Assembly (NCBI GenBank): GCA_905178155.1
Contig: CAJINV010000004.1
Location: 2,378,228 to 2,442,227, forward strand
Reading direction: 5' to 3'
Source of the DNA: Amoebophrya sp. A120
Lineage: Eukaryota > Protista > Dinoflagellata
Length of the DNA stretch: 64,000 nucleotides
The notes beneath the pieces were generated by a model. That model was not told where the DNA came from. It searched no databases and worked only from the letters and a program-made list of their open reading frames with translations. Below, piece after piece: positions 33,616-63,900 of the stretch (the first letter of the stretch is position 1; each line of letters starts with the position of its first letter). The translations under genes and the position numbers were made by a program.

Positions 33616-33744
33616 GGCCGGTGCGCCTGCACGTAGCTGTATGGCCTGCCACATAGCGGCCCCTTCCCCTTGTCCCTTTCCTTGAGCCTTTCCTTCGGAT
33701 TTTGGTAGATTTTCGGCAAATTTTTGGGAGCTTTCAAAAACGCA

Positions 33745-34365
33745 GAGTGATACGCACTCCGCCTTTTTTTTGACACGCAAAGTGACACGCAGAGTGACAC
33801 GCACACTGATACGCACTCGTCAAACACGACCTGTTTCTCGTTTTTGACGAGTGTGTACTGTCAAACCGCTCTGTAAATTGACACGCAGTGAGTGCGTGTC
33901 AGTGCGTGTCACTTTTACAGACCGGAGAGAGGTTTTGGAAAGTTTTGGAAATATCCTTCACCGACGGTATTGTGTGACACGCACTCACTGCGTGTCAAGT
34001 GCGTGTCACTCTTCACGCCTGTATTCTCGCCACCAGCGATTCGGTCGTGCGTGTCACTGCGTGTCACCAGAATATAGGTGCAAAAAGTGACACGCACTGA
34101 CACGCACTAGATGCGTGTCACTACCATACCGTGCAGGAGAGAGACAACGCCTGTCGTCTTTTGGTCTTCCCCGATGGTATACGGTGACACGCACTGAGTG
34201 CGTGTCACTTTTTGCACCTATATTCTGGTGACACGCAGTGACACGCATTGCGGTACGCAAGTGACACGCAGTGTGACACGCACTGCGTGTCACTTGCGTA
34301 TCACTTTGCGTGTCAACTGCGTGTCACTTTTTGGACTCAACTGCGTGTCAACTGCGTGTCACTTT
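33745..34365. repeat. Dense array of GTGACACGCA/TGCGTGTCAC motifs in both orientations, with a perfect 51-bp inverted repeat
   Basis: More than 20 copies of the 10-mer or near matches; 34048-34098 is the exact reverse complement of 34197-34247. Confidence 0.9.
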
Positions 34366-34473
34366 TTGGACGTTTTGCTTGTCTGAGCGTGTTCATTTTT
34401 TTGCGCCTTTTCTTCCCGAATTCGACTGCCTTTTTTTGCGCCACATTCTGCTTTTTTGAACAACAGAAAATAC

Positions 34474-35027
34474 GGCTTTTTTCTGTACTTTGGCAGCTCC
34501 AAGTTGAAGAAAAAGGCCGCGCTGTATGTTTTGCTGCAGAAAGTACTCAAGACCGGCGCCCCCGCCCTGCTGGCGGGGGTCGGTTGGCCGGCATGGGAGA
34601 GAGCACGAAGCGCCCGGAAAAGGGAAAAGAGGCCTTTTCCTGAAACTTGGCGGCCCGAAGTTGCAGAAAAAGGCCTCCAAATGATTGCCGCGAGCAAGTG
34701 CGCGCGCTTGGTCTGGCTTGGCTTCTTTGGCTCGGGCGATGCTTCCTCGCTATTGTTGGGCGCGCAGCTGGGCGCGCGGTTGGGTGCAAGCCGGCTTCTT
34801 GGCTGCGATAGCTGCGAAGAAACGAAAAGACGAGCTTTTTCTGCAACTTGGCGGCCCCAACTTGTCGAAAAAGCCTGTCAGCCGAGACCTGTTGAACAAG
34901 ACCGCTGCGCCTTTTGCTGCTGCCTGGCCGGAGGGGCCCGGTGACCTTCCGCCCTAGGCCCTCGCATTTGTGCCTGGCCGCTAACTGAGGCCTTTTCTGG
35001 CAACTTGCAGCTGGGAACTTGTCCAGT
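34474..35027. repeat. Four spaced ~45-bp palindromic repeats
   Basis: Approximate consensus GGCYTTTTYCTG.AACTTGGCGGCCC.AAGTTG..GAAAAAGGCC at ~34474, 34630, 34834 and (degenerate) 34988. Confidence 0.7.
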
Positions 35028-35349
35028 TTGCGCGTCTTCTTTTTGTGTTTCTTGTGTTGGGCTCTGGGGCCAAAAGAAACACTTCGACAGCGCCACTCCC
35101 TATCGCCGCCTGGCGTCCCATGGCCATGGTAGTGGACATTTTGAGCGCGTTTCAGAAGCCACCCAGTTGCTAGGCCGATTTCACTCCGAAAGTTGTGTCA
35201 GAATCGCTTCTCCGCTATTTTTCTCCACCTCGTCACGCGAGGATTCCGGAGGGGCGCTTCTGCAAGCAGCGCCAGGTGATAAAATTGTCGCGGCCAGGAA
35301 AGCGAAAGAGCAGGATGAAAGACCCCAAAAGGATTCCCTCTCACTTGTG

Positions 35350-38300: not shown

Positions 38301-41098
38301 GTGAAAGCAGACGATGTCGTCACGGCGCATTGCGGCTCTCACACCGTGGTCCGAGCAAGGGATAGCGACGCGCTCTTCTCGTGGGGTGGGAAGCTGGATA
38401 CCAGGAAGACGAAGAGGTACAGCTACTTAGGTGCTGAAGATGGGCCTCGTCGTGATACAGGTACAGCTGAGAATTGTAGTTCAGTGCCGGCATCAAGTTC
38501 TTCTTCTTCGTACAACTTGCACAAATTGATTCTCGGAGGCGCTAGAATTACAACACCAGCCGGCGTCGATGATGGAGCAGTAGTCCCAGCTAGTAGTCGT
38601 GCAACAGCAGGGGCTGCTTCGCTCTCTTCCACGACCACTGGAGATCGCTTGAATACCGCTGCTGCTGATCCGGGAATGTCAATACCAGGATCCCCGACTT
38701 CTACGACGTTTCCGAAGCAACTTGACAATGGGGACCACCTTTCACTAGGGGTGAACGAGGTGCAGCTGAGCATAGTGGAATGTAGCAACACGAGAAGTAC
38801 ACCAGGAGTAGCGGATCAAAACCACAGCAATCCTGGCAGGGTTGTAATGGATGATGAAGATACCTCCACTACTGCTGCTGCTCCCGGGGTTCTTATCTAC
38901 ACGCCACGACAACTTGACATGTTTGAGGTCGTGAAAAATCAGGTTGATGACCCGGAAAACAAGAGTATGACGAAGAAAGACACGACGGAAACCAGCAGAA
39001 CAGCTTCCTCACTCGCCTACCAGCATTCCCGGCGCGCGGTTCCGGACAATTTGAGTAGAAATACGGGCAACGAAAATAAAAACGAGCTGCTGTTCAAGAA
39101 CATACTAAATGCGCGTAGTTTACAAGTGCGCAAAATCGCTACCGGCGCTCACTTCACCGTGTTTGTGACCGTAGAGGGCAATGTGTACGCGCAGGGACTA
39201 CTGGACGAAGACGACCACTGGAGCGGTGAAGACGGAGTCTTAGGGCCGCAAGCTTCGCCAAGGACGTCGTCGAGCAGGGTCGGGACTGGAATAAGGGAAC
39301 AACATCAGAACGAAAATCGCAACCGCCTTGCAAGAACTCTGACGTCCTCCGTGTACCGCATACCAATCGAACACGAGGTTATCGAAGATGGAACTACATT
39401 GAAGCCCCCCTTAGAGCAAAATCAAAGCGAAAAACACCCTGGTGCTTCTCCTCGTTCTATTGGTCGTGCAGCAGTTTGTCCGCAGCCGCCGCTCCGCGTC
39501 CGCGACGTGGCCTGCGGGTCGTTTCACGCGGTGGCGCTGACGACGGACGGCGATTTGTTCTCCTGGGGGCGGGGCGAGGGGGGGCAGCTGGGGTTGCCGT
39601 TAGCGACCTTGGAGAGAGAGTTCGAGCAAACGGGTGACACTTTCGTCAACGTGCCCCGGAAGATATTTTTAAACGTAGAGGCGGAAGAAGATGTGGATGT
39701 CAAGTTTACCCAAGTAGCGTGTGGCGAAGTGCACTGCTGCGCGGTGGACACGAAGGGGCAGGTGTACTCCTGGGGCTGGGGTATCAAATGCAAATATATC
39801 TGGGTCTGGAAACTTGTAATGCTGAGAGACGTAGCACGAGGAGGCCACAAATGATGGCTCAGCATGACAAGTTTCTGAGCTTCTAAGTGTTGCCTATTCT
39901 GCATGGCAAAGCGCGTTTCTGCATCACAGAAAAATAGGGTTTTTGGGTACCGTGCATGGCAGACTTGAGAGTCTTGCTAGCCTAGCACGACAAATCTTGC
40001 ACTTTCCAGACCCAGACATTTTTGCAATTCATATGGGGCGAATTCGGGCAATTGGGGCTGGATCCGGCCGCGTTTCCGTCGGAAGATTCGAAGAGGTGCT
40101 TTACGCCGAAGAAAATTGACGGCGCGAAATACTTTCACGACCGGAAAATCCGGGAAGTGAAGTGCGGCGGCGCGTTCAGTGTGGCGGTGACAGTCTGTTC
40201 GGCGGTCGTGGCAGGATCGCAGAAGGAGGTCGTGACAGGAGCAACGTCTTCGAAGAAAAATATCGACCACGAAAATGAATCTTCGGCCGGCGCGTCTAGC
40301 AGTTCGAAAGCCTCTCAAAGGATCGCTGTAGAAGACGGGCGGGAAGAAGATAATGAGTTACTGACCGGCGATGTCGATTTGGATTTGCGAAGGCATGTGG
40401 AATATCAAATGTAAAAATGTCTGGGTCTGGAAGAGTGCGCGATTTGTCATGCACCTTTTCCATGACCCATCCCCATGAGGTCTGGAATGCAGGACCTAGC
40501 ATGACAGATTCTGTGCGATCTCTCTCATGCCTATCCTGCATGAGAAACTCCCTCCCGACTTGGTCAAAACTGGACGACTTTTGGCAATCGTGCAACACAG
40601 ATTTTTGCATGCTTCAGATTTAGCATGACAAGTTGCATTCTTCCAGACCCAGACATTTTTACATTTGATATGGAAAGTACTACATCCACGACGCAACCAA
40701 CCTCCGTCACGTTTGACGGACTGTACTCCGGCAGCCAGGGCGGGCAGGTGTACGCGTGGGGCACCAACGACCGGGGGCAGGTGGCGCAGCACCCCTCGAA
40801 AGTGTTCGAGCAGCGCACGCCGCACCACTTGCTGGCGCTCGCGCACACGTGCGTGGTCGAGGTGTCCTGCGGGTTGCACCATACGCTTGCGTTGGACGTG
40901 ACCGGGCGCGTGTTCGCCTGGGGTAGCAACTCGCACGGGCAGCTGGGTACCCGGTCCCTGCCGAAAACGCGACAGCCGCCCCCCGTGTTTGCGGGCAGCC
41001 AGGAGTTTGAGTGTGCGCCCCAGCCACTGCAGGCCCTCTCGCGGATTCGCATCTGCAAAGTTGCTGCGGGCAGAGAGCATTCAGTCCTGTTGACGTAA
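35350..41098 (+). CDS. RCC1-repeat (beta-propeller) protein, ~1,510 aa; 5 TIR introns
   Basis: RCC1 motifs GQIFVFGSNKFGQLG, KIATGAHFTVFVTVEGNVY, DVACGSFHAVALTTDGDLFSWGRGEGGQLG, QVACGEVHCCAVDTKGQVYSWGWG|EFGQLG, EVSCGLHHTLALDVTGRVFAWGSNSHGQLG. Span 5,749 minus 1,216 = 4,533 nt. Start codon and extreme 3' end uncertain (possible GT-AG intron 41095-41160). Confidence 0.85.
36442..36591. mobile_element. TIR intron, family E, 150 bp (shortest in window)
   Basis: TATCCTGTGTAAAAGTCTCGTACT...AGTACGATACTTTTGCAATGCATA; direct repeat ACTGG; join VAHW|ALRGYL. Confidence 0.9.
37625..37876. mobile_element. TIR intron, family A, 252 bp
   Basis: Perfect 32-bp TIR TATCAAATGTAAAAATGTCTGGGTCTGGAAGA; direct repeat CCGGA; join TSPD|DLDQEV. 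Confidence 0.95.
38003..38271. mobile_element. TIR intron, family A, 269 bp
   Basis: Family A TIRs, right end slightly eroded; direct repeat TGCGG/CGCGG (4/5); join RPLR|LMALAT. Confidence 0.9.
39782..40033. mobile_element. TIR intron, family A, 252 bp
   Basis: Family A TIRs; direct repeat TGGGG; join rebuilds RCC1 motif YSWGWG|EFGQLG. Confidence 0.95.
40403..40670. mobile_element. TIR intron, family A, 268 bp; reverse-orientation copy of 38003-38271
   Basis: Perfect 32-bp TIR; direct repeat TGGAA; join RHVE|STTSTT. Confidence 0.95.
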
Positions 41099-47500: not shown

Positions 47501-49971
47501 CCTCTACAGCATCCTCGGGCGCAGCGACGCCGTTCGATGTTGGTCTTCTAGGAGCGGCCCCGACGAATTTCACTACCAGTACGGACGGTGTCTTCCCGGT
47601 GTCGTCCAGTGGTGCAACGCAGCAACTGTTCGCGCGAACGGTAATATCTTCGTCAACAGCAGGAACATTCATCCACCAGAACAAATCGGTTCGCAGTACT
47701 GGATTTTTGCACAATTCCGGCCCGGCCTCCGTGTCACCGTCCAAGGAGCGTAGTGGCCGCCCCCGAACAGATGTTAGTATCGAAAGGGACGACGAGGGAA
47801 ACTTCGTCTTCGTCGCGATCATTCTTTCTTTGGCAGCTGGAAATTATGCATGAAAAAGCTGCATGTGCATGGGATGGCTGGTTGTCATGCCGGAGAACGC
47901 GTATATATAGAGAAATACGTAAAAATACCATTTTTTCTGCTGCACAAATGATTTTTTGCAAAATAGATTCATTATTTTTCGATCTCAATTGTGAAGACGA
48001 AGTGTTTATTTCGTTTGATAGTCCGCGGCCTGGTAAACAGTGCGTCCAAGAAGATTCTGGACTCTTGTACGTCTGGCGGAGGACCAGGACGTGTTGGCTC
48101 TGTAGTCTCCTCGTCTTCCGGTTCCTCGTCTAAAAACACCACTGCCTCGTGCACGCCGCCGGTTGGATATCGCAAGAAAAAGCTGTTGCACTGTAAACTT
48201 GTGATGCATAAAATGGAACACAGAAGTATTTGTCTATGCTACACATGCAAAAAAGTGGATTTTTAGCTGTGTTTCCCTTAGGAAGCCTGCGTGGCAAATG
48301 TTCTCTGTCATGTAGAACGAACTTGTGATGCAAAACGACCTGCAAAATCCTTACAGTGAAACACTTTTGTCGTACGATATTGGAACATCATCGAGTACTA
48401 TGGTTGTGACGGACCACCGGCCGCCAGTGCCAGCAGTACCAACATCTTCTTACACGACCCCCGCTGAAAATAATTGCACCTCATCCACCCGCCCCTACCC
48501 GGCGACACTGTTGCAGCAGCAAGATCTTCATCTCGTACGAGAAAGATACGACCAGCAGACTGCGATGAACTACACGGAAGATTTCGAGCTTGCTGCAACA
48601 ACTGGGTACATGCTCGATGAAACAGAAACAGCAGCAGCCGCAACGAAAAGCCAGCTGAATTTCTGTGGGCGGCTGGTGGTGTCGCGTATCGTACGAAAAA
48701 AGTGTTTCACTGTAAGGATTTTGCAAGTTGTGCATCACAAGTTCGCTACACATATACAAAGAAAACTTGCCATGCAAGGAGCCTAAGGGAAAACACCGCT
48801 GAAAATCCACTGTCTTGCATGTGTAGCAAGACAAACATCGCCGTGATGCATTTTCTGCATTGCAGACTTACAGTGAAACAGTTTTTTCTTGCGATATCGC
48901 GCCACCTCCCGTCAATGGAGGCCCTCAGGGGGCACAAGCAGTCGAAGCCTCGTATGGGGTTCTCAAACGTTACTTTCTCAACTGTTACATGATTTGTCAT
49001 GCAAAATGACCATGACCCGCCAGACGATCAAGCTGCTGCGCATGACAAATTCTGAGAGGGCTAAACAGCACTATAATCCGCACCAAACCTGTAATGCAAG
49101 ACGCGCAAGGTTCTCCCTCTCAACTGTGCTAGTCGTGCATTACAAATTCATGTCGGTTTAGCATTACAAATTCGGTGGTGGCCTGAGCATCTGCGGAAAG
49201 GTGCCCTATGGGTTGCGTTTGTGGTTTCGGTCGGTTTAGCATTACAAATTCATGTAACAGTTGGGAATGTAACGTTTGAGAACGCCATACCTCGGGAGCT
49301 TTCCCCGGGTGATAGTAACAGTAGATGACTGTGATGTCGATAACTTGAAGACGCAAAGATACTTTTGAGAATTCACTTTCCTCAACATGTACAAAGAATT
49401 TGAAGTAGACTTCTAAAATTGGTGACCCGACGAGTAGGACTACATGATAATGCTTCGAGATTTTCAATATACGTGACACTCATTTTTTCTTTTCATCCTG
49501 TACGATAGATTCAACTATGTCGGTTTTTGATTTTGATTTATGCACAACATGTAGGACCAGGCGGAGGCCTGCAGCCCACCAGGAGCACGAGGTGCCCGAT
49601 AGATCTCTTTGCAGGAGGAAGAGCCACAGCAGCAGGTTGCCTTTGACAAGAATTTCAGACGCGCGGTGGTCACGTTCCTACTTTTGATTTTGTACGATGA
49701 AGATGTTGCCTTGGCTCAGCACTACCACTATGTGGACAAAAATTCTGTCGCACGCATATGTGAAAGAGGATATTCTTCTCGACACACCAAAGCCAAAGCG
49801 CTCCCGCTACTTCCCCCGTGGCCTACTTCACGACTGCGGAGACAACTTTTGCACCGCGTCTTCGCACCGAAGAAAAATCATTCGTGTTTAAAGACGTGTC
49901 TGTGTCATGGTTTTTCTGAAGCTGGCATCATCATTCAGGCAAAATCAAATATCGGTGAAAATCAAAAGTAA
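44525..49971 (+). CDS. Hypothetical P-loop protein, possibly a highly divergent RFC small-subunit/AAA+; 8 TIR introns; 3' end uncertain
   Basis: Frame is restored across 8 elements and a probable GT-AG intron (~45469-45710). LPHFVITGVAGAGKR resembles the RFC Walker A region; NFRRAVV in ORF 49609 resembles sensor-2, but its linkage to upstream exons was not resolved. Confidence 0.5.
44721..44935. mobile_element. TIR intron, family F, 215 bp
   Basis: TATCCCACGAAAAAAGTGTTTCACTGTAAG...CTTACAGTGAAACAGGTTTTTCTTGCGATA; direct repeat CACCT/CGCCT; join AIPT|YHDQNG. Confidence 0.9.
46003..46282. mobile_element. TIR intron, family D, 280 bp
   Basis: TATCCTATTTAAAAACGTCCCCAC...GTGGGGACGTTTTTACTCAGGATA; direct repeat CTTGT; join EGLV|PSTNNN. 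Confidence 0.93.
46828..47125. mobile_element. TIR intron, family G, 298 bp
   Basis: TATGGATGTGTCAGGATTGAAATCGACAAAATC...GATTTTGTCAATTTCGATTCTGACACGTCCATA; direct repeat CAATC; join LQQS|SGRHRL. Confidence 0.92.
47216..47410. mobile_element. Degenerate TIR intron, 195 bp
   Basis: TGTGCAGTGTAAAAG...CTTTGCACAGGATA; internal GCATCACAA and GCATGACAA; flanks CCTCG/CGCTG (2/5); removal of element plus 5 nt skips an in-frame stop and joins SSSS|KKHLISS. Confidence 0.65.
47778..48020. mobile_element. Degenerate TIR intron, 243 bp
   Basis: TATCGAAA..ACTTCGTCTTC...GAAGACGAAGT..TTCGTTTGATA; flanks GTTAG/GTCCG (3/5); join TDVS|GLVNSA. Confidence 0.7.
48168..48379. mobile_element. TIR intron, family F, 212 bp; opposite orientation to 44721 and 48687
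   Basis: TATCGCAAGAAAAAGCTGTTGCACTGTAA...TTACAGTGAAACACTTTTGTCGTACGATA; direct repeat TTGGA; join PPVG|TSSSTM. Confidence 0.93.
48687..48896. mobile_element. TIR intron, family F, 210 bp
   Basis: TATCGTACGAAAAAAGTGTTTCACTGTAAG...CTTACAGTGAAACAGTTTTTTCTTGCGATA; direct repeat TCGCG; join VVSR|HLPSME. Confidence 0.93.
48953..49289. mobile_element. TIR intron, singleton family, 337 bp
   Basis: TATGGGGTTCTCAAACGTTACTTTCTCAACTGTTACATGA...TCATGTAACAGTTGGGAATGTAACGTTTGAGAACGCCATA; direct repeat CCTCG; join SKPR|ELSPG. Confidence 0.92.
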
Positions 49972-50826
49972 AAGGCTTCATGCCACCCATCGGTCGGAAG
50001 AAAACTAAACAGAGATGAATACAGTCTCGGCTGTGGGGATGAACGATCCACCGGACGAGTTGTTTCTGTTTATTTTCCATCGGTTTTACTGTTTGTAATT
50101 GTATTTACCCCGGGCTCGGTCTCCCTCTGTGCAGTTGGGAAGAATGGAATCGAAGGACAATTGAAGTATGACTTCGGTCCTTGCTTGTCCAGCAGAAGTA
50201 GATCGGAAGTCTCTGTAGAACAAGCTGCTTCGGAAAGAGAAGATTTTGTGCATCGGTGCGGCCACGACACGCTTGACAATACATAGAACTACCTACAGCT
50301 GGTCGGAAGCTCCCAACAAGTGTGGACAAGTAAATAATAGAATCACCTTGATGAATTATTTATTTTAAAGTTTTTCTATTACTATTACACAGGATCAGGA
50401 GCCCTTTCTATTCGAGTCTTTACTTCTTACGATAGCCGTAACTAGTAGCCGAATCGCAAGTCAAAAGAAGCGAAAAATAAGTTTTACCAACCCCAGAAGC
50501 GGAACACGAACAAGTAAAAAGAAATTATTTTTTGCATCATTCGGAATCTCCATCTCGTCGTACTACTTTCATCAAGACCTTCTTGCTCTAAGTGTAACAA
50601 GGAGAACCAACGGAGAACCTACACAGTTCTCGTCCTGACAACGGAGAACCAACAACTTAAGTAAATCTGAAGTATAAATCAACGAGTTTGAAATTGATAC
50701 GTTTCCAGAACATCAACACTCTCGACACACAGGTGAAGAAATTGAAGTTCAAATTTCACATCGCAGGGCTTGCCGGGTCTCCTAGCTTCGGACACCCAGC
50801 ATCGGGGGTTCTGCTAGACCGCGAAA

Positions 50827-53800
50827 ATGGGAGGTAATAAATTATGGATTGCAAAAGTGTCTGGGTCTGGAAAGTTGGAACTTGTAATGCTGGTCTTGCA
50901 TTTCTGTGAAATCTGTATTGCATGACCAACAAAAGTGGTAGCCTCCCATGTCATACAAAAACGCAGCTTGTCATGCGGAGTTCGTATGAGAAAGCGTACT
51001 GCAAACTTGTCATGCTTTCCTGCATAAGGTAGTGACTTCCTCTTGCACACGACCCAGACATTTTTGCAGTTGATATAAATCCTCGCAGAACAATAACAAT
51101 TTGCCTTCCGGGCGGAACAAGATATCCTCCGTGAAAAACGCCCCAACCTCCCCAATAAAGTTGTCGTGAAAAAAATCTGTAAATCTTCAGGGTAAGCTGA
51201 TCGATTTCTCATCATGTGGCTGCACTAGTGAATCATCAGATTACAATCCTAGTACAACAGGCCCACAGCACGACTTGTCATGCGCAACAGCTAGAGCTTG
51301 TTGCTTTGTGGCGCCCATCTTGACACTGGGATGCTGGGGAGGTTTTCACACAGGATAGAAGATGGCACCAGGCGGGCTTAAGACGATGCTGTGTTTCAGC
51401 TATCAAACAAAAAAAGTTCGTCACGATCTCACTCATGCGCATTTTTGCAATACAAAACTGTCTCCTGTCATGCGTATTAGAAATGCATCACAGTCGAGCT
51501 TATTTCTGCTCGAAGACTCGGATTTCTCTTGTGTGTGTGCCTACAGAACAAGAAGAAGGGAACCTGCAAAGATGCAGGAAAAATTTGTCACGCACCGAAA
51601 CCTGCAAGTTAGTGATAGTGACTACGAACTCCAACTCTTGTCTTTCTATATCAGCGCCGCCACGACTTTTAATGTTATGCCCGGCGCGCACGGGCTTCTG
51701 CGGGTGATGATGGAAACAAAGAAAAAGAAGAGTGCAAGTAGCAACAAATTCGCGGCGGCGCGGGAGAACCAGTATCTGAAAATGCTGGGCGACGTTTCGA
51801 CTTCTGTCCAAGACCTTCGCACGCAACTTTCCCAGCATGCCACGGCTATCGGCAGCATGCAGACGATATGCAACACAAAAACTGTGTGAGTGTAAGTCTG
51901 TGATGCAGAGAATGCAAAACAGTAATATGCTTGTCATTCTGGATGTGCGTCATAGAAGACTACTAACTTTCATACGTGTTTTCACGTACGAGCTGCGCAT
52001 CGCAGGTTTTTTCTGTAATGCACAAGGAATTTGTGATGCTGTTGCTGTTCTTCCTACAAAATTACACTTACACAGTTTTTTTCTTGGATAGTCTAAAGAA
52101 GTGCATCAGCAGAAGCAAATCGACTACTTGACGGGGCTATGCATTGCAAATGTGTCTGGGTCTGGAAGGTTGCAAATTTGTGATGCTGTCTTTGGATTCT
52201 TAGAAAATTTGTGATGCTATTGCTAGGTCATCGATTGCAGGCATCCAGGGTCAAGATTCAAAATATGCATGACAAACCTGGCAATATTCCAGACCCAGAC
52301 ATATTTGCATTTGATACGGGCATTTGAATCAATTGAAGCGCAGCATTGACATATCGCAAGAAAAAACTGTTTCACTGTGAACTTGTGACGCAGGAAATGG
52401 AACACGACACTCTTTGTCTTGCTACACATGCAAGACATAGGATAATTTTCAAGCATATGTTTTCACTTGGAAAGCGCGCATGGCAAAGTTTCGGTGTCAT
52501 GTGTACACAAACTTGCGACGAAGATCTTGTAAAAGAATCACAGTGAAACACGATTTCCCGACGATATTAAGGCCTCGCGTTTGGCGACGCCGAGAAATGC
52601 GCGGCGGAGATCATGAACCCGACGAGCGGAAGCCACTTTGCGGTGTACACCTGGAATCGTGCCCCGCACACCTCTATGGATTGCAAATATGTCTTCTGCG
52701 TCTGGAAGAGTATCAAGTTTGCCTTGCGGTGCAGCTTGTTTTGCATGACCCGGAAGGAGCAAGTCTGGAATGCGAGCCGTAGCGTCTTCACAAGTTTTTG
52801 GAAGGCTCCTCGATGTTGCCTATCCTGTGCATGAGAAATGTCGCCTCGTCCAGGTGACCAAAATTGGGTGGCTTTTGCTACACATGCCATACACATATTT
52901 TTGTTTCCACCTCAAGTAGATGTTGTAACAACATCTAGCGTCAATTTTCACAAACTCAGACTGTTCCAGATTCAGGCACTTTTGCAGTTAATAACGTCCA
53001 GTCCGGAGCCCCTGGAGCCCGGGCTGCCCCTGGAGAAGCGACTGAAAGCAGAGGAGACCAATCTTTGGCACGAGAGATACGACCTTTACCCCGGGGACAC
53101 GAAAACCGTTCGCGCCTTTGACGGGCAGAGTAAACAGTGTGACACGTTTCGGATATTCGTCGTTCGCCAGAACAGCTATCATTTGTAAAAACGTCCCCAC
53201 CCCATAGTCAAGTTGGTAAATCTGCAACACAAATCTCCAAGTTATGGGAGTTTTGCATGACAAGTTTCTATCTGTAGTGTCGTGCTGTTTGGCAAGGGCA
53301 GACGCATGAGAAGGCCAGCTTCTCATCCCGTTTACAGCATTTTTACAAGGTCCAAAACAGGATTGGAAATGCCTCTCATGCAGATCCTCATTACAAAAAC
53401 TAATGTTGCTCTCATTGCGCATTTGCATGACAACTCTGGGGGAGGCAAACGCAAAGGGTGTCGCACTTCTGTTTAGCATGACAACTCTGGGGTGGATACG
53501 TTTTTTCATAGGATAACAGCCGCAACATATTCACGCGCAAGTACAGCGACAAAATGATGCAGCTGGAAAACGGCAAATCCTACGTGATTATGGCGCCCAA
53601 TGAAGTCATGCTCCAGGGTATGGAAGCGTCAGGATGGAAATCGACAAAGTATGGATGAAATAATTTCTCATGCACAAAATCGATAACAGTTTTTAGAGCC
53701 AAACTGTATAGTCGGCACATGACAAATTTTCCCTCCGCCGGAAGCGAATCTGTCACGCTGTTTAGGGCAAGGAGCTCCCCTCTGTCATGCTAGTCAGCAT

Positions 53801-54516
53801 GCAGGCGCAGCCCAATTTTTGACCCTTAGCAGGGCTATGATCTGCCTCCTTTGCATTTTCTGCAATAGAGGCACCCTCTGCGTCGCATTTTATGCATTGC
53901 AAATCATTTTAACTATGGCGATTTCGATTCTGACACGACTCCCATAACGGGCGAAATGGCCCTGCGGCAGCAAACATCGGGAGGAGCCATCACTCCCTCG
54001 ACCGCTGTCCCGTCTACTGTGAGGAAAAATCCCCCCTCCCTATACTGAAAAGGTATATTTCTGAAAATTTGCGATGCTGATTTGTGGCCGCAAATCCTGC
54101 GTCTGCCTCTCTTGCAAGAGGGCAAACTCAGAAACTCTGCCACGATATGCAGGCGATTTGTAATGCTGAAAGGCCTACAGGGCAGACGTCTGCCATGCTA
54201 GGCCCCTACACCAAAGGGCCCCCCCTTAGGCTTACGATCTGCCTGCAGTGCCTTACTGCAACACAAATGTGATTTGTGTACTCAAATACAGCAACACAAA
54301 TTTCGTTTTCGATATGGGGAAGGGGGATTTTTCCTTTTGATACCGTCTGGGAGCGCTTCAGTTGCGTCCGACACGGAAGATGATGCTGCTGCGCCTGATG
54401 CATATCAAGCTCTGCGTGGTGCTACGACTCCATTTGACGATGATCAAATGCCGATGCCGTCTGCTCCGCCGGGTGCTCCAACTCCAATTCCGTCTGGCCC
54501 TCCGGAAAACCGTTAG
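50827..54516 (+). CDS. Hypothetical 329-aa protein split into 11 exons by 10 TIR introns
   Basis: Removing 10 elements plus one 5-mer each (2,700 of 3,690 nt) leaves 990 nt, open from ATG to TAG: MGGNK|SSQNNNNLPSGRNK|MAPGGLKTMLCFS|AATTF...MQT|KEVHQQKQIDYLTG|HLNQLKRSID|SLAFGD...PHTS|SPEPLE...RQNS|RNIF...MLQG|EMALRQ...VPS|GSASV...PPENR. Central coiled-coil-like segment, Pro-rich tail. Confidence 0.82.
50843..51075. mobile_element. TIR intron, family A, 233 bp
   Basis: TATGGATTGCAAAAGTGTCTGGGTC...GACCCAGACATTTTTGCAGTTGATA; direct repeat TAAAT. Confidence 0.9.
51123..51357. mobile_element. TIR intron, family D-like (diverged), 235 bp
   Basis: TATCCTCCGTGAAAAACGCCCCA...TGGGGAGGTTTTCACACAGGATA; direct repeat CAAGA/GAAGA. 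Confidence 0.85.
51401..51650. mobile_element. TIR intron, singleton family, 250 bp; in frame and stop-free
   Basis: TATCAAACAAAAAAAGTTCGTCACGATCTCACT...AGTGATAGTGACTACGAACT..TCTTTCTATA; direct repeat TCAGC; internal TGTCATGC and GCATCACA motifs. Confidence 0.8.
51867..52090. mobile_element. TIR intron, family C, 224 bp
   Basis: TATGCAACACAAAAACTGTGTGAGTGTAA...TTACACTTACACAGTTTTTTTCTTGGATA; flanks GACGA/GTCTA (3/5). Confidence 0.87.
52138..52316. mobile_element. TIR intron, family A, internally deleted, 179 bp
   Basis: TATGCATTGCAAATGTGTCTGGGTCTGGAA...TTCCAGACCCAGACATATTTGCATTTGATA; flanks GGGGC/CGGGC; both ends align to 31801-32062. Confidence 0.9.
52352..52566. mobile_element. TIR intron, family F, 215 bp
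   Basis: TATCGCAAGAAAAAACTGTTTCACTGTG...CACAGTGAAACACGATTTCCCGACGATA; flanks TGACA/TTAAG (2/5), frame still restored. Confidence 0.85.
52675..52993. mobile_element. TIR intron, family A (diverged), 319 bp
   Basis: TATGGATTGCAAATATGTCTTCTGCGTCTGGAA...TTCCAGATTCAGGCACTTTTGCAGTTAATA; flanks ACCTC/ACGTC. Confidence 0.85.
53177..53515. mobile_element. TIR intron, family D, 339 bp (internal 51-bp gain)
   Basis: TATCATTTGTAAAAACGTCCCCACCCC...GGGGTGGATACGTTTTTTCATAGGATA; direct repeat ACAGC; close to 42207-42495. Confidence 0.93.
53619..53946. mobile_element. TIR intron, family G, 328 bp
   Basis: TATGGAAGCGTCAGGATGGAAATCG...CGATTTCGATTCTGACACGACTCCCATA; flanks CAGGG/ACGGG (3/5). Confidence 0.85.
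54015..54342. mobile_element. TIR intron, family B, 328 bp; left terminus diverged (TACTGTG)
   Basis: TACTGTGAGGAAAAATCCCCCCTCCC...GGGGAAGGGGGATTTTTCCTTTTGATA; direct repeat CCGTC. Confidence 0.9.
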
Positions 54517-55062
54517 AAGGCGATGGAGATGCCCAAGACGATTAAACCGAAAAATAAACTCAACCGACGTCGAGGTAAAAAGACAAACTCAACCGTCGAA
54601 GCGCGTGCTTGACGTGACCACATAAAATATGAGTCGGCTCGACACAAATTATGAGGAATTTTTACGCGGCAAAAACTATAACTACGTTGTGACTACTTGA
54701 TAGACGCGCCGTCAGTTCTTTTGCTAGTATACTTTATCATAAGCAAATGCATCACCATCACTCGTCACACTTTCAGAAAAAATAATTTCGTCGATTTCTT
54801 TACGTGATCAGGAACAGGATCACAAGGAATTTTCATCAACAGAGTGTGATGGTGTTGCGAAGAAACGAACACAGTTCAAGCGTAAGTTACCTTTTAAACG
54901 CAAAAAATCTATAAATGAAAATCGAGGAAGATGTCGAGGTACAAGCCCAATCTGCATGATGTGACCACGTAGCGGGTCATCTGACAGAAATATATCGATA
55001 ATTTTTTTGTAACTTCACTAGACTATATTTTGGGTCCAGAAAAAAAAAATAAAATATCACGC

Positions 55063-55115: not shown

Positions 55116-57156
55116 CAGCCAAAAGAAAAAAGCCCGAGCGCGCAACAGCTCGCGCGGTGTGGGGACTGGTCCCGCTCTTTTTCGTGAGAAGTGGCATCGG
55201 AGAAAGTCACCGTGACAAATTTCGCCCCTAGCGTTCAAACTTTCTGTAGCGTGTCCCAACCTCCGCACTTGTTAGTCGGGATGATTATGTTGGGGGCGCA
55301 CGAAGTAGGGCAGTTTTTGCGCCCCCGCACCAGTGCAAGGGTTTCCAACCAGGTATGAAAGTAATGGCGCACGGGTGCGCGTTTCGTCGATTTCTTGCGA
55401 CGATACTTTTCAGGCCGCAGGATGTTTGGATCTATTTTCACCAAGAATCTGCGCGATTCATCGGCCCCCTTCTCAATTCCGAGAAGGGGGCGGATGGCGG
55501 ATTCTGGCTGACGTTGCTCCCGGTCCCGCATCCCGAAGTCAAGGGGCTGGCTATCGGAAGCTTTGCTCGGAATGAAGATAGGCCTGGTGGTGGGTTTTGC
55601 GTTGTGTTTGGTTTTGCGCTTTTGCACCGACGCGGGCGGCGATGCCTCGTTGAAGTAAGAAAGGCGCAAACCCAGACCCGGCGCCCGCAAAAAGCGGAAG
55701 CCAGGGAGGGCCGCGAAAAAAATCTCCGCGCGCGCTGCGCGCGCGGAGAGAAGTTCTTGCAGCCGAGCCGCAGGCCGTGCGGGCTTCGAAATGAGCGAAG
55801 GGGGTTCGGCAAACTCAACTCCCCGAATTTGCCACGCGCGCAGCGCCTTCCTTGTGGGGCAACTTCTTCTCCGTGCGGCGCACGCGCGGCCCGGCCCCTC
55901 CCATTCATATGGAACGCCTAAAATTTTTCTCGCGCGCTGCGCGCGCTGGCTGCCCGTCCCCTCTTTGTTTCTCTTGGCCCGTTTTTTGCTCACGCGGGGG
56001 CCTCCTTGCTGCAGGGGACGACAAAAAAGTTGTCGCGCGCAACGCACACAGCCTTGGGCTTCCTTCTTTGGGGGGCAAGCCCGTGCAGAATCCGCTTTGC
56101 GCAAGCGGCCTTTGATGTCCGTGCTTGTGTGGTTGGAGGGCGCCTGGTATTTTTTCCGCGTACCAGGCACGCAGCCTAGCCTCGTCGCCTTGGGGGGGGG
56201 AGGGTCTGAAAGATCTCTTTCGCACACCGTGCACGCGGAAGCGCACCGAGCTGGCGCAATTTCCCCGGTGCGTCTATTTTCTCTGCGTGTGGGGGGAGCC
56301 TGCTCTGATTTGCTGCTAGCCCGGCGGAGATGGGGCAGCATGGCGTGCGCGCGGTGGTGCTGACTCTGCTTGCGCGGCACGGCAAAGGCGACGCGCGCGC
56401 GGCCCGGAATTTTCTCCGGACCCGCGGCCCTGTTCCCAAAACCGCAAAAAAAAACTTCTTCGCGCGCTGCCGCGCGCGCGTGCGAATTCCATTGGCCCGC
56501 TTGCCTGCGCCGCCGGCGAAGGCCACAAGCCGTACGCCCCCCCTGCTGTCCTAGGCCGTGTGGGCGTTGCTGAGCGATTTCGTTGTGGGGCCTTTGCCGG
56601 GCTGCAGCGCGTGGCACATGGGGTACCGGCTACCCGAGGGAGGCGCCGTGTGTTGCCCTAGGGTGGTACTGGGGGCGTGCCGCGAGTCCTTGGCGCGGCG
56701 CTTTTTTTTCGCTTTCTTACTGTCTTTTTTCCCGCAGTGCTGTGTTTAGCATAGTGTATTCTGGCTAAGGATACCCTGGGAACAGCTCACGCGGTGCCAA
56801 CATAAGTCCCAGGCTGGCTGTGGAGGTGTTTTTGGTCTCGCGCAGAGAATGGCTTGGTGCAGGACGCTGGGCGTTTTTCCCGTCGCGCAGTGTTTAGCAT
56901 AGGGTATTCTGGCTACCCTGGGCGCGGCTTGCCCAGGATAGGTGCGGGTCTGTAGGTCGATTTTTGCCTCTGAATGTAGCGGGAGGTCGCTGAGTGTAGC
57001 GTAGGGAGAGGCCCCGTAGCAGGGGCCTGTGCCCGGAGACCGTTTTTTTTGTGCCCTGAACGCATTCGCCCCTCGTTTTCTCTTTAAGAAGTCCGTTTTC
57101 CCATCATCTTCTTCACGATGTCGGGGCTTCTCGAGATTTCCTTCAGAAGGGGACAT

Positions 57157-57390
57157 TTGGGAAATCCTTTCTCCTGGGCTTTTCGCATGATTTCCTTTGG
57201 GAAATCCCTTCTCCTGGGCTTTCCGCATGATTTCCTTTGGGAAATCCCTTCTCCTGGGCTTTCCGCGTGATTTCCTTTGGGAAATCCCTTCTCCTGGGTT
57301 TTCCGCGTGATTTCCTTTGGGAAATGCCTTCTCCTGGGCTTTCCGCATAATTTCTTTTAGGAAATCGCTCGCCCCTGGGCTTTCCGCGTT
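57157..57390. repeat. 40-bp tandem repeat (~6 copies) with internal hairpin
   Basis: Unit GATTTCCTTTGGGAAATCCCTTCTCCTGGGCTTTCCGCRT; GATTTCC/GGAAATC is self-complementary. Confidence 0.92.
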
Positions 57391-57540
57391 ATAGGAAATC
57401 TCTTCCTTAGGAGCCGGCCGCTGATCTCCGCGTCAACACGTACTGGAAGCAAGCTCCTTCTGATCTCCACTGCGAAACAGAGCGGAGACGAGCTCGGTGG
57501 CTAGGGTCTGGGTGGGATAGGGCCTGTCATAAGTATCGCG

Positions 57541-57677
57541 GTTTCTCCTTTGATATGGATCAGAGGGTCCGCGATGTCGGACTTTTCTCCTTTGATATGG
57601 ATCAGACGACTTTTCTCCTTTGATATGGATCAAAGGAGAAAAGTCCGGACTTTTCTCCTTGCAAAGGAGAAAAGTCC
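57541..57677. repeat. Palindromic array of GACTTTTCTCCTT/AAGGAGAAAAGTC
   Basis: Copies at 57580, 57608, 57633, 57648, 57664 (last four alternate in orientation); AAGGAGAAAAGTCCGGACTTTTCTCCTT (57633-57660) is a perfect 28-bp palindrome. Confidence 0.9.
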
Positions 57678-57715
57678 GCTGGATTGATACCAGAGCGAGC
57701 AGCTCCTGGTCCAAG

Positions 57716-57900
57716 TCCTTCTGTTTTTGCTTCAAATCTTTCCGTTTTAGCATCAAATCCTTCTGCTTTGGCATCAAATCCTTCTGCTTTAGCATCAAAT
57801 CCTTCTGCTTTAGCATCAATTCCTTCTGTTTTAGCATCAATTCCTTCTGTTTTAGCGTCAATTCCTTCTGTTTTAGCATCAATTCCTTCTGTTTTTGCTT
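57716..57900. repeat. 21-bp tandem repeat (~9 copies)
   Basis: Unit TCCTTCTGYTTTAGCATCAAW; reads QKELMLK/QKDLMLK on the minus strand. Confidence 0.92.
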
Positions 57901-60900
57901 TTTTCTAAATATCACACATGTTGTGATATCAGCAGCGCAATCGACTTTTCTCCTTTGGTCCTGTGATATCACGTGATATCACGTGATATCAAAGGAGAAA
58001 AGTCTTTTTTCAAAGTTTAAAGACCCTTGTTGGAAGACGAGATGATCTTGATCTTCGACTCCTATGCGACGCCGTTTGTCGATATAATGCGACTCCTCCT
58101 CGAGATTGGACCCGAAGACGCAGGTGTGCGCCGATACGTAGTCGTGTAAAACTAGATCTACCACGAAGGTTCAAACTCTATCGAAAAGTGAGCACAACAT
58201 GCTGCAACCCAGGCACCCGCCTTACTAGCCTTGCCTGATCGACGCTCGAAGGTGCAGTGCTCTGATTTAGCGAAGGAAAGAGGTAGAGATTTCGAGCACC
58301 ATGTAATTAGACGAAGACAACAAGGAGCAACCACAGAAGTACTTAATATTGGTATTAAACTCAGATTGCACAGACGCGGCAGTAGGTGCGGACCCTCTCA
58401 CGATTTTGTAGAATGCAGCAAAGTGCACACATAAAAAAATAATTTTCTCAGGCAGCGCGAGCGCCTTCGTTCGCGCTTCCGTAGGTAGTAGACAGTACCA
58501 TCGTAGTACGGGTGCGGAGATGGTGGCTCTAACTCAGAATGTTCTTCCATCTTCTTCACTTCTTTTCCCACCGCCCGGGCGTGCTGTGTTTTATCGTGGT
58601 TCGTTTTCTTGTCCTGGTCGTATCTAAGTATAACTAAGTAACAGTTTCTCGTCATTTTGTGTGCTCAGTCGATGGGATGGTGGATATTGTGGTTTATTCG
58701 CTGCCCTTGCACTTGAGTGGCCCATAGTCATAACTTTGACTCACGCGACGGAGTCTGTCTGGAGAAGTTCTCGCTTCGTATTTATTAGGACAAGCAAGTC
58801 CAAGCTGCTTCACCGACTTGTTATTTTCGTACCAAGAACCTCGTTCGACACCAGAGGCAGAGCTGCTGTTTTTTTACTTCGTGTCGGCCGCGCCTACATG
58901 ATCGTGCAGTAGTGAAGAAGATCCTCGGATGAAGTTTATTTGTAGAGTAGAGACAGTTGTGTTGACCTTGACGAGGAGTATCGTGCCCTGTTTCGTTCTT
59001 CCGATTTGTAATAATATCTTCGTGTTGCAGCTCGTCCTAGTACTTCTGAGGTCCTCGTGTAATTTCAATTTGATTTTGAGTCAACACAACTGCGTTTTTT
59101 GTGCCCGTGCTGAGGTTCGAGCCATCGTTTCGTACATTGAAGTAAACCGCAATTCGATTTGTTTTGTTACTCGTACACACGCAATGCTGTCGTGCCTATT
59201 TGTTTCTTGCGCGGATGAACAAGGTGGTCGACCCCCCGGGGGAGATGCCGGGTAACCAAGGTCCACTAGAAGGCTCTGTTTTTTTCCGTTTACAGAGGTC
59301 GCCCCCTTCTAGGATATTTTGCGAACAGCCCAGTTTGCGACTTGCCTCATCCCTTGTAATAGTTTATACTAGTTTGCCACTACTTGAAAACTTTGCATGC
59401 AGAAGGGATAGAGGATCTTAGCTAGAGTGCTCGTAGTGCATCGGACAGCTTGTTTCGAGTCAAAGTGTCCAACTCTTTGCATTTTAGGAAGCGCTACCGG
59501 ACTTTGCATGAGCACACCCAAAACGGATATTTATGGTTTCTGCTGTCAAAGACCAGCAGCTGGCATCCCGCTGTACCCGAACCCCAGCTGTGGCCTTTTG
59601 TATATCTTGTCATGACTTCCCGTTCCCGCCTAAACCCGTACCCTCTCCTCCTTTCCCTACCCCTCTTGTTTTGTGATTCAAATATCATGCGTGTCTCATT
59701 CACATTGAATCACGAATAGACTGGGCCGTCAGTTCAAGTCTTGCTCCCCATTTTTGAAGCGCTCTATTTAATTACCTGCTCGAAAGCGCAAAGGCTTGCA
59801 TATTTGGTATTCGGCGCCAGTGCGACGGCTAGCCGCAAGATGTTTCCTGGCTTCTGTGCCTTTGGTACTGGAGTGCTTGATCTGATGTATAGCGCTAGCC
59901 CTTTCCCGCCCATCCTTTGGAAGTACCCTACGGACCTTGCCCGGTCTATTCAGCCTTGCCAGGTCTTGCGTCCGTATCTGGCCCTTGCCCATGGAGTAGC
60001 CCTCCGTCACCCTCCCCACCCTCGTTCCCTGTCTTGCATGCTTTCTTCCAGATTATGCGCTGTGCATCTCCTGCAACTTGTTAGGGAGTGGCGGCTGTTG
60101 ATTTTCCGGACTCTCTCGTCGATGCATGTTGACGTTGCTCGTCTAGCTCAAGGCATGCATGGGCTGACGTGTCCACCAGGGCATATCTTTTGCCAGGTGC
60201 GTCTGCGTTTCGTGCCCGTGGATGGCACTCGCGTCAGTTTCGAACCGCTTGGCTCGCGTTTGTTTCCGGCCAGATACCCTCCGCAGTGGGGTGCTACGTC
60301 TCTCGTGGGCGACTACCTTCTTGCATGTTTTTCCTACCCCTTCCCCTGATCTTTCTTGTTTGTTTCTTGCGCGGATGAACAAGGTGGTCGACGTCGAGCC
60401 AGTCGAGTCTCGGCCTGCGTCGTTCGATTATACCGAGCACGGCCACAAGAACTCGAAATTGCTTTATTCCATCCATAAATTATCACAGTTGGCAATATAA
60501 GTTTAAAGGAGGTACATGCTAAAAATGTTCCCGCCCCCCGTCAAAGAGAACCGATCTTTACACAAGATATCAATAGGTAGCCTTCGCGTGGTAAAGTTTA
60601 GAAGTAAAAGGCTTCAGCGAGGACTTCTTGTAATCTCTGAGCCCATATAATTTTTAAGCATAAACAGGATAAAAATTTGGGCTACAACACCACCTCCTGA
60701 AAAAACTCTCGTTCGGTGCCGGTCTCTCTACGTCAGGATAATGGCCAAGATGTGCTTGACCATGAAACTGCAGGTACTTCAGTAGAGCAGGAGGAGCTCG
60801 TCTTGCGCCGCAGCCTTGCGGGTCAACATCCGTCGTGAACCAAAAACGTCAATCAACTACCGGGACACGACGAAGAAACGAAGGAGCTTTGCACTTGTTT

Positions 60901-60948: not shown

Positions 60949-63900
60949 ATGAACGAGGAGGAGGCTGAGGCCGTGCACGACGATGACACCACGTTTTACG
61001 TCCTCTACGTGGAGACTATTCGCCTCGCCCACCCCGACCCACAGCCACTGAACGCCTGCATCCACTGGTACATCGGGGACGCGTATCAAATGTAAAAGTG
61101 TCTGGGTCTGGAAGAATGCATGTTTGTCATGCTTGTCTGGCATGACTCTTAAATATGTCATGCACGTTACCCAGGAGCTCTGTTTTTCTGTGATGCAGAA
61201 ACGCAGTTTGTCATGCAGAATAGGCAACACCTAGAAGCTCAGAAACTTGTCATGCTGAGCCAGCACTTGTGGCCTCATCATGAGACGCCACCCAGCATCA
61301 CAAGTTTCCAGACCCAGACATATTTGCAGTCCATAACGCGGACTACAGTTCAGTGCCCTTCACCATCCCGGCGAATGCGCAGTGGTACGATCTGAAAAAC
61401 TGCGGTTTTGTTCTGGTGCCCGACGCCGCACTGAAAGAGGACAGCGAAAAGAACAGCCTGACCCTGTCGATCACCAGCTGGGAAGGAGAACACCTGGGCG
61501 TCTTCTTTGGACACTGCGGAGACATCGCCACAAGTATTAAATTATATCACGATCATGTTTACATTTATTCTTTTGCTTCGATAGTTGTAGTTCTAGCTAC
61601 CGTCAAAGCAGTTGTTGGGTTACAAAACGTTCATAGAAGTTACGTCCCGCTGAATAAAAAAATCTTCTCTGCCCATTTTTTATCAGGCGAAACGTTCGAC
61701 AAGCATGACGTCGAGCTTTTGCACGAAGACGGCTCCTTCGCGACCGCCGAACTTCACGCGGCACGCCAGGGCCGTTGGACGCTGAGTGGCGCGAAGCAAA
61801 AGGAATGCGTGTTTGTCGATCCGAGCAACGATGCCCAGGCCAAGCACATCTGGGAGTTCATCGCGCCGGAGCCTACCGCGTCGTGGAAAGGCACAGCCAA
61901 GGCGAAGGGGACGGCTCCACCTGCGGCGGCCGGTGGGGTTGATGCGGGGGAAACTACATCTGCTTCAAAGGCGGACACAAGCAAGATGGTAGAGGAAGGC
62001 CAGAATGCTGGAGCAAGTGGTAGTACCGACGAGAAGAATAAAGCTGAGGCAGGTGGGGCCGCGTCGAGTAGCCGTGGTCCGAGGGTATAATTCAGTCTAT
62101 ATCATCTTGCTTTGTGTTGTGAATGAAGATGAACGCGGTGCAGCAGCTGCAACCTACGGCACACCTTCGAATATTAGAATTAGAAAGAGGAATGATATAA
62201 GTATCGATAACAGGTGCCATCATTCTTGGACGCAGAACGCATATGCAACGCGTGATGATTATCGCAGGCTCAGCACAAATGAATATTTATGAATGCTGAA
62301 AGCTGCAACAAGTTAGTGCTTTGAATAAAATACAAATATACGGAAATCATCATGTGCACGAAAATCAAAATCAAATTCCGTTCGTAAAATAAAACACAGG
62401 ACGCCGATCCGAGCCCGGAAATAAAAGCCAGTAAGGAAAGCGAACAAAAAGGCGCCCCAGGAGACGACACTGCAGCAGCAGAAGATGGAGCTGGTACTCA
62501 CTCGTCTTTGCATACAGTTTTTCCACATGCCGAATCTATTGCAGTGCCGAAGGAGCTTGCGCTAAATCGTTTTTTACGTGCTACGAGTGCAGAAGACGAA
62601 GAGCGTCTTTCACTTTCTATATCTATTTGCTTTTGTGCTCCTTCGATGACATAAATGATTATGAAAAAACCGTAATCACAGACGACCCCGGGAATGCCGA
62701 CCCGAAGGGCGCCTCCACCGCGAAACGCAAAAGCGCCCGCAAAAGGACGTCCGCGAAGGCCGACGCGAGCGACGAGCCTTCGGTACCAGGTAAAGAGGTT
62801 GTAGTAGTTGCCAGCGCAAGCAAAGAAGGAACATCAAGTGCAACTACGTCGCCAGGCAAAAAAACCAAACTCAACGTCGGGAGCAGCAATAAGCAGGCGG
62901 AGCTCACTTCCCTTCCCCCCGGGGAGCAGAGAAACTCTTCGGCAAGTAGTCCGGAGCGGAAAATGAAGACCAACGTGTTCAAACGAGCTGCGCAAAGCGT
63001 GATCGACGCGAACATAGCGACCAGCAGTTCAACGTCTCGGAAAAGTACGAACAAATCGCCCAGAAAATCGAAAAGCAACCGAGACAGCAACACCACTGGA
63101 GGTGAAAACAAGGGAAATAAAGTAGGCGAGTTCCTTCTGGACAAAGGCGTGGAGCAGTTAAATGAGTTCACCAACAAGGTCTACGCGTCCGAAGGCTGCC
63201 GCGCCACGCTGATGCATCCGAGTAATGGGCAGAAGATGCCGGTCAGAATGCGAATTCTTATGAAGAAAACAGGCTTACCCGTCCCCGGGAGTGAGGTCAG
63301 CAACATCGCGGAGGATGCGTATTTGGAGATCGCGAAAGACAGTGTGGACAACAGTAGCAACCCGTTTCTCCAGCCCGCCTTACCCTCTACTGGTGTAGTC
63401 TCCAGCACCGCTGCGAGCGCAGCCCTTCCCTCCGGCCGGTCTCTGAACAAAAACATCCTCCGTTCCGTGAAGCTGTCCGGCATCAAGAACCTGTTTCTCG
63501 GCGCGAATTTATCGCCGTTGACGAAACGGGCCTTGAAACTGACCGAGGAGAAACAGTTGCAGTACCTGCACCCGCTGTGCGTGACCATGCAAATCTCCGA
63601 GGAGTTGGAGTTTCTGACCCTGGAGTTTCTGTACCCGGACCAAGTGCAAGACGTGACCGAGGACGGGTTGAACCTACACACGGAGGAGCTACTCGGGAAC
63701 AAATCCGAGTACCTTCCGCAGTTCATCGAATTGTGTCGCAGCTACTACGCGCCGCCGAGGTACCCCGACGAGCCGCAGACGTATAATTTGCTTTCCAAAC
63801 AGCAGTTTCCCGACGTGAAGAAAGTGTGTGAGGAGGCGGTGGTAAAAGTGGCGCAGAAAAAGGTGAACGACCTGCAGACGCTCCGGAACTCGGTAAACTT

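Follow-up and report, generated by a model that had tools for sequence, protein, structure and literature searches.

In the dinoflagellate Amoebophrya sp. A120, a parasite from the sea, a forward-strand gene at 50827-54516 of a 64,000-nucleotide (nt) stretch of DNA (contig CAJINV010000004.1, positions 2,378,228 to 2,442,227; hereafter the window, in whose numbering positions are given) carries ten transposon-like inserts. It is probable that this gene is split by ten inverted-repeat elements of several families, each of which is likely the insertion of a transposon that duplicated 5 nt of its target, and that each is likely spliced from the transcript at a fixed distance from its ends. The inserts belong to the class of introner elements described by Farhat et al. 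2021 (PMC7789003). As the gene is annotated and elements of this class have been published, the finding is ordinary for this genome.

The longest open reading frame (ORF) that starts with ATG within the gene span encodes 175 amino acids (aa) on the forward strand and 173 aa on the reverse strand (180 aa from stop to stop), and most of the span consists of sequence repeated elsewhere in the window. Contigs of run X3 contain exactly ten joints of large depth, which skip pieces of 184-344 nt. Joints 1-8 lie on a single contig of 1237 nt (50836>51075, 51118>51359, 51395>51651, 51865>52095, 52133>52318, 52350>52571, 52672>52997 and 53170>53515), and joints 9 and 10 (53615>53949 and 54009>54343) lie on two further contigs. 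Application of the ten joints removes 2700 of 3690 nt (73.2%) and leaves 990 nt that encode 329 aa, from the ATG at 50827 to the TAG at 54516, with segments between neighboring elements of 47, 43, 216, 47, 35, 108, 183, 103 and 68 nt. These values bear out a preliminary description of the DNA, which had reported no ORF above ~175 aa, a continuous 990-nt ATG-to-TAG frame, ten elements filling 73% of the span and segments as short as 35-47 nt, and the joints in the likely RNA contigs give the frame that it had predicted. A search with the largest exon as query retrieved one protein, of 329 aa, from Amoebophrya sp. A120. Since the joined frame is identical to the deposited protein CAD7944775.1 (gene GSA120T00000215001) at 329 of 329 residues, the gene is already annotated, and the gene model is correct to the base. 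The expectation that standard annotation would miss the product is therefore wrong in practice. It is right in principle because the genome authors, having found that neither classical mappers nor ab initio predictors suited this genome, used a transcript-based pipeline instead (PMC7789003).

Joints 4, 5 and 10 were recovered from runs X4 and X6 among the records listed (15 of 879), and an X4 record of 1177 nt has a length that agrees with joints 1-8. X4 comes from the same sample as X3 and X6 from another; that these three runs are RNA is a guess and is not on record. Run X1 behaves as DNA would, with a flat depth of about 42-52 over unique DNA, a summed contig depth over element bins that far exceeds that of unique DNA, and a contig that passes uninterrupted through 52414-53203, element 7 included. 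Joints 4, 5 and 10 have a depth of 0 in X1 and X7.

In all ten cases the skipped length equals that of an inverted-repeat element plus 5 nt. Element 1 (50843-51075, 233 nt, flanks TAAAT/TAAAT) belongs to a family with CTGGGTCTGG ends, and such ends are also found in element 5 (52138-52316, 179 nt, flanks GGGGC/CGGGC). Element 2 (51123-51357, 235 nt, flanks CAAGA/GAAGA) is followed by element 3 (51401-51650, 250 nt, flanks TCAGC/TCAGC), which has the weakest inverted ends (14/30), and by element 4 (51867-52090, 224 nt, flanks GACGA/GTCTA). Element 6 (52352-52566, 215 nt, flanks TGACA/TTAAG) is documented by its X3 joint and by record 9 of X4. Elements 7 (52675-52993, 319 nt, flanks ACCTC/ACGTC) and 8 (53177-53515, 339 nt, flanks ACAGC/ACAGC) precede element 9 (53619-53946, 328 nt, flanks CAGGG/ACGGG), whose ends lack the usual A-run, and element 10 (54015-54342, 328 nt, flanks CCGTC/CCGTC), which starts with TAC rather than TAT. 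TAT thus marks 19 of the 20 element ends, the A-run is present in all elements except element 9, and 14-26 of 30 paired end bases match. The 5-nt flanking repeat is perfect in four elements and matches at two to four of five positions in the other six, as the preliminary description had noted in counting six of ten with mismatched flanks. A 4-nt duplication with a stray base was also considered and was dropped, as the fifth base matches in 7/10 elements here and in 23/25 outside the gene.

Nine of the ten elements match other elements of the window, and element 3 has no relative at 60% identity there. Clustering gives eight groups at 60% whole-length identity, nine at 65-70%, and seven if the terminal motif of element 5 is taken to unite it with elements 1 and 7, which makes the earlier estimate of about seven families a fair one. 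Both orientations occur within families. Nine of the ten introns fold better than shuffled sequences (z -2.4 to -7.3), and a hairpin from end to end is predicted in most. None of the ten joints has GT-AG ends, at any allowed shift or in the register described below, and the GT(GC)-AG ends of U2-type introns are absent from the ten. A120 introners are described as having inverted repeats in which TAT is followed by some seven variable positions and then by an A-run, direct repeats of 3-5 nt at the borders, a mean length of 240 nt and a hairpin, and the repeated introns counted in this genome number 29,850 and fall into 1954 families (PMC7789003). The inserts share the properties of that class in being encoded in A120, in having TAT ends and direct repeats, in being repeated, and in being skipped, with non-canonical borders, in likely RNA contigs.

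A perfect 5-nt repeat hides the position of the cut and a decayed repeat reveals it, so that six of the elements are informative. The joint of element 6 (52350>52571) is the only unambiguous one and places the donor 1 nt before TAT and the acceptor 4 nt after ATA. The donor offsets allowed are 0-1 for element 4, 0-2 for element 7, 0-3 for element 9, and 0-4 for elements 2 and 5, and the only register that fits all ten joints is the 1/4 register of element 6. When offsets 0-5 were tried, only offset 1 rebuilt CAD7944775.1; offset 0 introduces G127S, offsets 2-3 introduce D126E, and offsets 4-5 lead to a stop. In the 1/4 register, all 35 elements catalogued in the window have T and A at +2 and +3 and ATA at -7 to -5, letters that were the element scan's own condition for entry. 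External support comes from Table S4 of PMC7789003, in which the predominant non-canonical classes of A120 introns are GT-AC, CT-AG, AT-AG, GT-CG, GT-AA, CT-AC, AT-AT, AT-AC and TT-AG. T is at +2 in all nine, which agrees with offset 1 but not with offset 0, for which TA would be expected. With offset 1 taken from that table, the probability that all six informative introns fit by chance is 0.013. The nine A25 classes in the same table are all TT-NN, and A25 repeats start with TTA (PMC7789003), so that A120 and A25 would both carry U at +2 and A at +3. On balance these observations favor one register, N|TAT...ATA-NNNN|, used in either element orientation, in which the donor resembles GU-A in having U at +2 followed by A at +3. 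The 1/4 splice register was not found stated in print; the figures of PMC7789003 (the logos of Fig. 3, and S19-S25), the datasets of PMC12130899 and subscription papers may show it.

The anatomy of the elements suggests how such introns could arise and be removed. A non-autonomous terminal inverted repeat (TIR) element would insert with a 5-bp duplication, and its ends would pair in the pre-mRNA to form the predicted hairpin. The splicing machine would then place its cuts at a constant spacing from the stem and remove, along with the element, a single base from the first repeat and four bases from the second, so that the original sequence is restored. TAT...A-run is the reading from both ends, so that a donor of the form N-U-A-U-S is available in either orientation. 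At the far end, positions -19 to -15 of the 1/4 register form a U-run and positions -7 to -5 read A-U-A. The N-U-A donor, the U-run and the A-U-A resemble, respectively, the donor, pyrimidine tract and branch site of spliceosomal introns. A relaxed U2-type spliceosome could tentatively be proposed to make the cuts, with the hairpin replacing G+1 and the 3' AG, together with the U-run at -19 to -15 and a possible branch A at -7. More broadly, there is nearly an even chance that tens of thousands of introns share a hidden code, in which an N-U-A donor and an acceptor four bases past ATA, irrespective of the acceptor's sequence, would be used by a spliceosome that lacks U1 and dispenses with G+1 and AG and that measures from the hairpin; A25 would have arrived at this U+2 A+3 donor in a different way.

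Several observations weigh against the reading of hairpin-guided splicing in a fixed register. The three presumed RNA runs belong to one study, the deposited gene model may have been built on the same data, and the raw RNA runs X9-X11 gave 0, 0 and 1 reads, too few for a test. Intron 3 folds no better than shuffled sequences (z -0.9), and the pairing probability of the outermost TAT/ATA is below 0.15 in introns 3, 5 and 10. The donor is fixed at exactly 1 by intron 6 alone, where an A-to-G edit at one base would mimic offset 1, and possible editing was noted at 4% of A120 intron ends (PMC7789003). Table S4 may carry an aligner bias, and the placement of borders inside repeats is unstated in the parts of PMC7789003 used here. 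If the table is set aside, random offsets would give the six informative introns a common offset with a probability of 0.084. Alternatively, the cut could slide anywhere within the 5-nt repeat of the same introner introns, the common register being due to luck or to one edited base. The probability of 0.084 and the legend of Fig. S23 in PMC7789003, which has repeats 1-5 nt from the splice sites, fit a sliding cut. Perfect repeats, however, are sufficient to make borders look variable, as 6/10 joints here have 5-6 shared letters; none of the nine top classes of Table S4 starts with TA; and the X3 joints listed include no second joint for intron 6. A sliding cut is therefore possible but is considered doubtful.

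The identity of the machine is a separate question. U1 small nuclear RNA (snRNA) was not found in A120 according to the passages of PMC7789003 used, and the acceptors have no common dinucleotide in the 1/4 register; both points count against the proposed mechanism and make involvement of the spliceosome tentative. Alternatively, the register could be fixed and the excision non-spliceosomal, carried out by a structure-guided nuclease and a ligase or by a separate machine of the euglenid type that measures from the hairpin. The lack of G+1 and of AG and the failure to find U1 snRNA would be in keeping with this, and in Euglena the introns leave as circles and depend on paired motifs with fixed spacers, of 3 and 5-6 nt. 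On the other side, A120 and A25 alike have U+2 and A+3, reminiscent of a GU-A donor, the same repeat layout occurs in 15% of the canonical introns of A120, which has almost the full set of spliceosomal proteins (PMC7789003), and non-canonical introns of tunicates are reported to use the spliceosome. A non-spliceosomal route is for these reasons judged rather unlikely.

Should splicing in the 1/4 register hold, any such transposon would be spliced cleanly in either orientation and from any target. If the register applies genome-wide, roughly two thirds of the introns in this organism would follow one splicing code. The register would also explain how elements can spread through coding DNA in either orientation, permit rule-based gene prediction, and narrow the search for a branch point used by a spliceosome seemingly devoid of U1. 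Decayed flanks turn borders regarded as unknown into a sharp and cheap test.

The preliminary description regarded the gene as an old insertion hotspot. As a statement about density this stands: there are 10.1 elements per kb of coding sequence (CDS) in the gene, seven other frames of the window range from 0 to 2.05, and at the density of introns of all kinds in A120 (1.42 per kb; PMC7789003) ten elements have a Poisson probability of about 2e-6, which is small even over about 26,000 genes. The gene contrasted with it, VPS36 (1.8 kb), is indeed free of elements by the scan, which found none in the EAP30/Vps36 frame (ATG 5888 to 7708, 1821 nt). The scan listed 34 candidates, of which 32 (8 in the gene, 24 outside) were kept and two were dropped as weak (34073-34222, flanks 0/5; 27655-27926, flanks 2/5); the catalogue of 35 was completed with elements 6 and 9 from their joints and 38003-38271 by homology. 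Candidate pairs with a score of at least 25 number 33 in the window and 0-1 in each of five shuffles. Outside the gene, when each element is removed along with 5 nt, junctions fall within frames of at least 300 codons in 18/25 cases, and in 12-13 when other lengths are removed.

The claim of age has moderate support. Flanks are imperfect in 6/10 elements in the gene and in 3/25 outside (P 0.007; 22/25 are perfect outside), a value that rises to 0.038 with the two dropped rows restored and to 0.066 for scan-found elements only. The two ends match at 22.5/30 in the gene versus 26/30 outside (P 0.001), and identity to the nearest relative is 66% versus 82% (P 0.0003), though the scan under-detects decayed elements outside the gene. 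The ten elements thus look older than those nearby, and they likely gathered by slow accumulation over a long time, probably because a gene under weak constraint would tolerate them.

It is less probable, though conceivable, that the gene is a true hotspot in which new elements land beside old ones or in open chromatin. Besides the density itself, this would be consistent with the preference of introners in other species for nucleosome linkers and with the element pairs at 15026-15072, 19937-19994 and 48896-48953, which leave exons of 40, 51 and 51 nt; such gaps represent 3/25 outside the gene (P about 0.024), no inter-element exon is shorter than 30 nt, and insertion beside existing elements together with a minimum exon size may account for them. 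However, the ten elements look older rather than younger than the others, so that no present-day targeting is visible, and spacing inside the gene is marginally non-random only (P 0.03 and 0.06, post hoc). Long tolerance yields the same picture, and insertion preference and retention look alike here.

It is very improbable that the joined contigs represent DNA from a strain or allele free of elements, or that the elements are cut from DNA, which the lack of an RNA record for the runs would allow, given that all ten elements are missing together, that the contigs start and end as transcripts do, that X3 leaves 49702-50169 uncovered, and that the DNA-like run keeps the inserts and shows none of the three listed joints.

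The protein product has few relatives. No Pfam family passes for the 329-aa protein (best E 0.049, below the cut-off), and five exon pieces have no Pfam match. A HMMER search of 1.84 billion representatives gave four matches, namely the protein itself, GSA25T00001609001 of A25 (E 7.6e-05), the A120 paralogue GSA120T00022170001 (E 1.2e-04), and P0003 (E 9.4e-05), a tandem-repeat protein that matches 28 residues and was excluded from the alignment. Common to the three aligned proteins are a helical stretch and, at about 132-230, a domain with invariant C, N, VY-N, L-P, D-G, C and FR, which supports a real protein. The two relatives are 36% identical over 131 positions and 31% and 26% identical to this protein in the alignment; since these two weak relatives, both from Amoebophrya, are closer to each other, the gene is likely a diverged paralogue. 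Word-index searches returned no protein of near length other than this one and no match among longer proteins, and two scans of metagenome contigs found no relatives. The profile and structure searches suggested earlier were run, with no PDB sequence or profile match for the 329-aa protein and models of low confidence (predicted local distance difference test 41.5; single-sequence folds were poor). With Foldseek no E fell under 0.001, and VIA-align found helical hairpins only (Z 8.2 or less); the fold matches were generic helices. Atlas matched residues of about 130-255 to small beta-rich folds (template-modeling score up to 0.57 by target), all under the bar for naming. The domain may resemble the VHL beta domain. 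No 19-residue window exceeds a hydropathy of 1.04. The protein is predicted to be soluble, with a helical, likely coiled-coil part at about 62-140, a small beta domain at about 132-255 and low-complexity ends; a weak guess would be a soluble, lineage-specific coiled-coil adaptor.

In the 1/4 register, the 11 exons of the coding span (GSA120T00000215001.1), which rest on the joints and the deposited protein, are 50827-50841, 51080-51121, 51362-51399, 51655-51865, 52095-52136, 52321-52350, 52571-52673, 52998-53175, 53520-53617, 53951-54013 and 54347-54516. Cover by spliced contigs places a 5' untranslated part at 50348-50826, with one upstream ATG at 50351; contigs begin at 50348 (X3), 50408 (X4) and 50393 (X6), from which the true start cannot be fixed. 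A 3' untranslated part extends over 54517-55056, covered to 55056 in X3 and 55049 in X4, and an X6 contig runs 410 letters past 55029, just ahead of an A10 run. A low-depth eleventh X3 joint skips 158 nt within element 4 (51914-52073, side of 20 letters) and probably reflects another copy of that element's family. Contigs of 390 nt in X3 and X4 (53589-53978) contain element 9, the one without the A-run and U-run, unspliced with 28-29 flanking bases (the bar was 31), and intron retention is possible there.

Elsewhere in the window, removal of five elements, each with 5 nt, from 18119-27760 (+) leaves a single frame of 2762 codons, whose five pieces have no Pfam match, and removal of five in the same way from 34945-41098 (+) leaves 1645 codons with RCC1 repeats and a weak IBR match below the cut-off. 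The youngest family in the window (19994-20245, 21507-21758 and 61084-61335) is 93-94% identical and occurs in both orientations, and the 5-nt flanks of its three copies are perfect and differ from copy to copy. Mismatches in the nine imperfect flanks fall at positions 1-5 in 5, 4, 1, 2 and 1 cases, mostly farthest from the 3' junction and too few for a test. Palindromic repeats of another kind occupy 33451-34873, including a 66-nt inverted pair at 33465-33603 and 34073-34222, whose ends match 20/20 without a flanking duplication. Tandem arrays lie at 57116-57392 (40-nt units) and 57670-57921 (21-nt units).

Similar elements are known elsewhere. Introners of Micromonas and Aureococcus resemble miniature inverted-repeat transposable elements and, like those described here, are non-autonomous, have terminal inverted repeats and target duplications, and become introns (PMC7789003, PMC9860276); they keep canonical splice motifs, in contrast to the ten introns of this gene, none of which is GT-AG in the 1/4 register. 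The nonconventional introns of euglenids (Nomura et al. 2025, PMC12501133; PMC11282704) are alike in lacking GT-AG, in having paired ends that lie at fixed distances from the junctions, in a longer 3' spacer, and in direct repeats that blur the borders. They differ in having CAG/CTG motifs, spacers that measure 3 and 5-6 nt, and a next exon that opens with a purine, in place of the TAT/ATA and spacers of 1 and 4 nt seen here. The euglenid code N3-CDG...CHG-N5-6|R does not describe the A120 introns, in which +4 to +6 are T, S and V and pairing begins at +2, so that the layout alone is alike; euglenids are an unrelated lineage, and their code was tested by knock-in (PMC12501133), whereas that of A120 is putative. 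The closest comparison is with A120 itself. Both TIR and long terminal repeat (LTR)-like introners are reported from A120 (PMC12130899), and no cognate transposase was found in it according to PMC7789003. Gozashti et al. 2025 (PMC12130899) described diverse A120 introners that give rise to tens of introns per gene, as is seen here; the passages of that paper contain no splice register, whereas one is proposed here. The introners of Farhat et al. 2021 (PMC7789003) come from the same strain and gene set and have the same TAT repeats, 5-bp direct repeats and many families. No clear signature was recognized in that paper, which described the intron borders as variable or unknown, while in the present gene all ten joints can be fitted by a single register, which also agrees with the paper's own Table S4.

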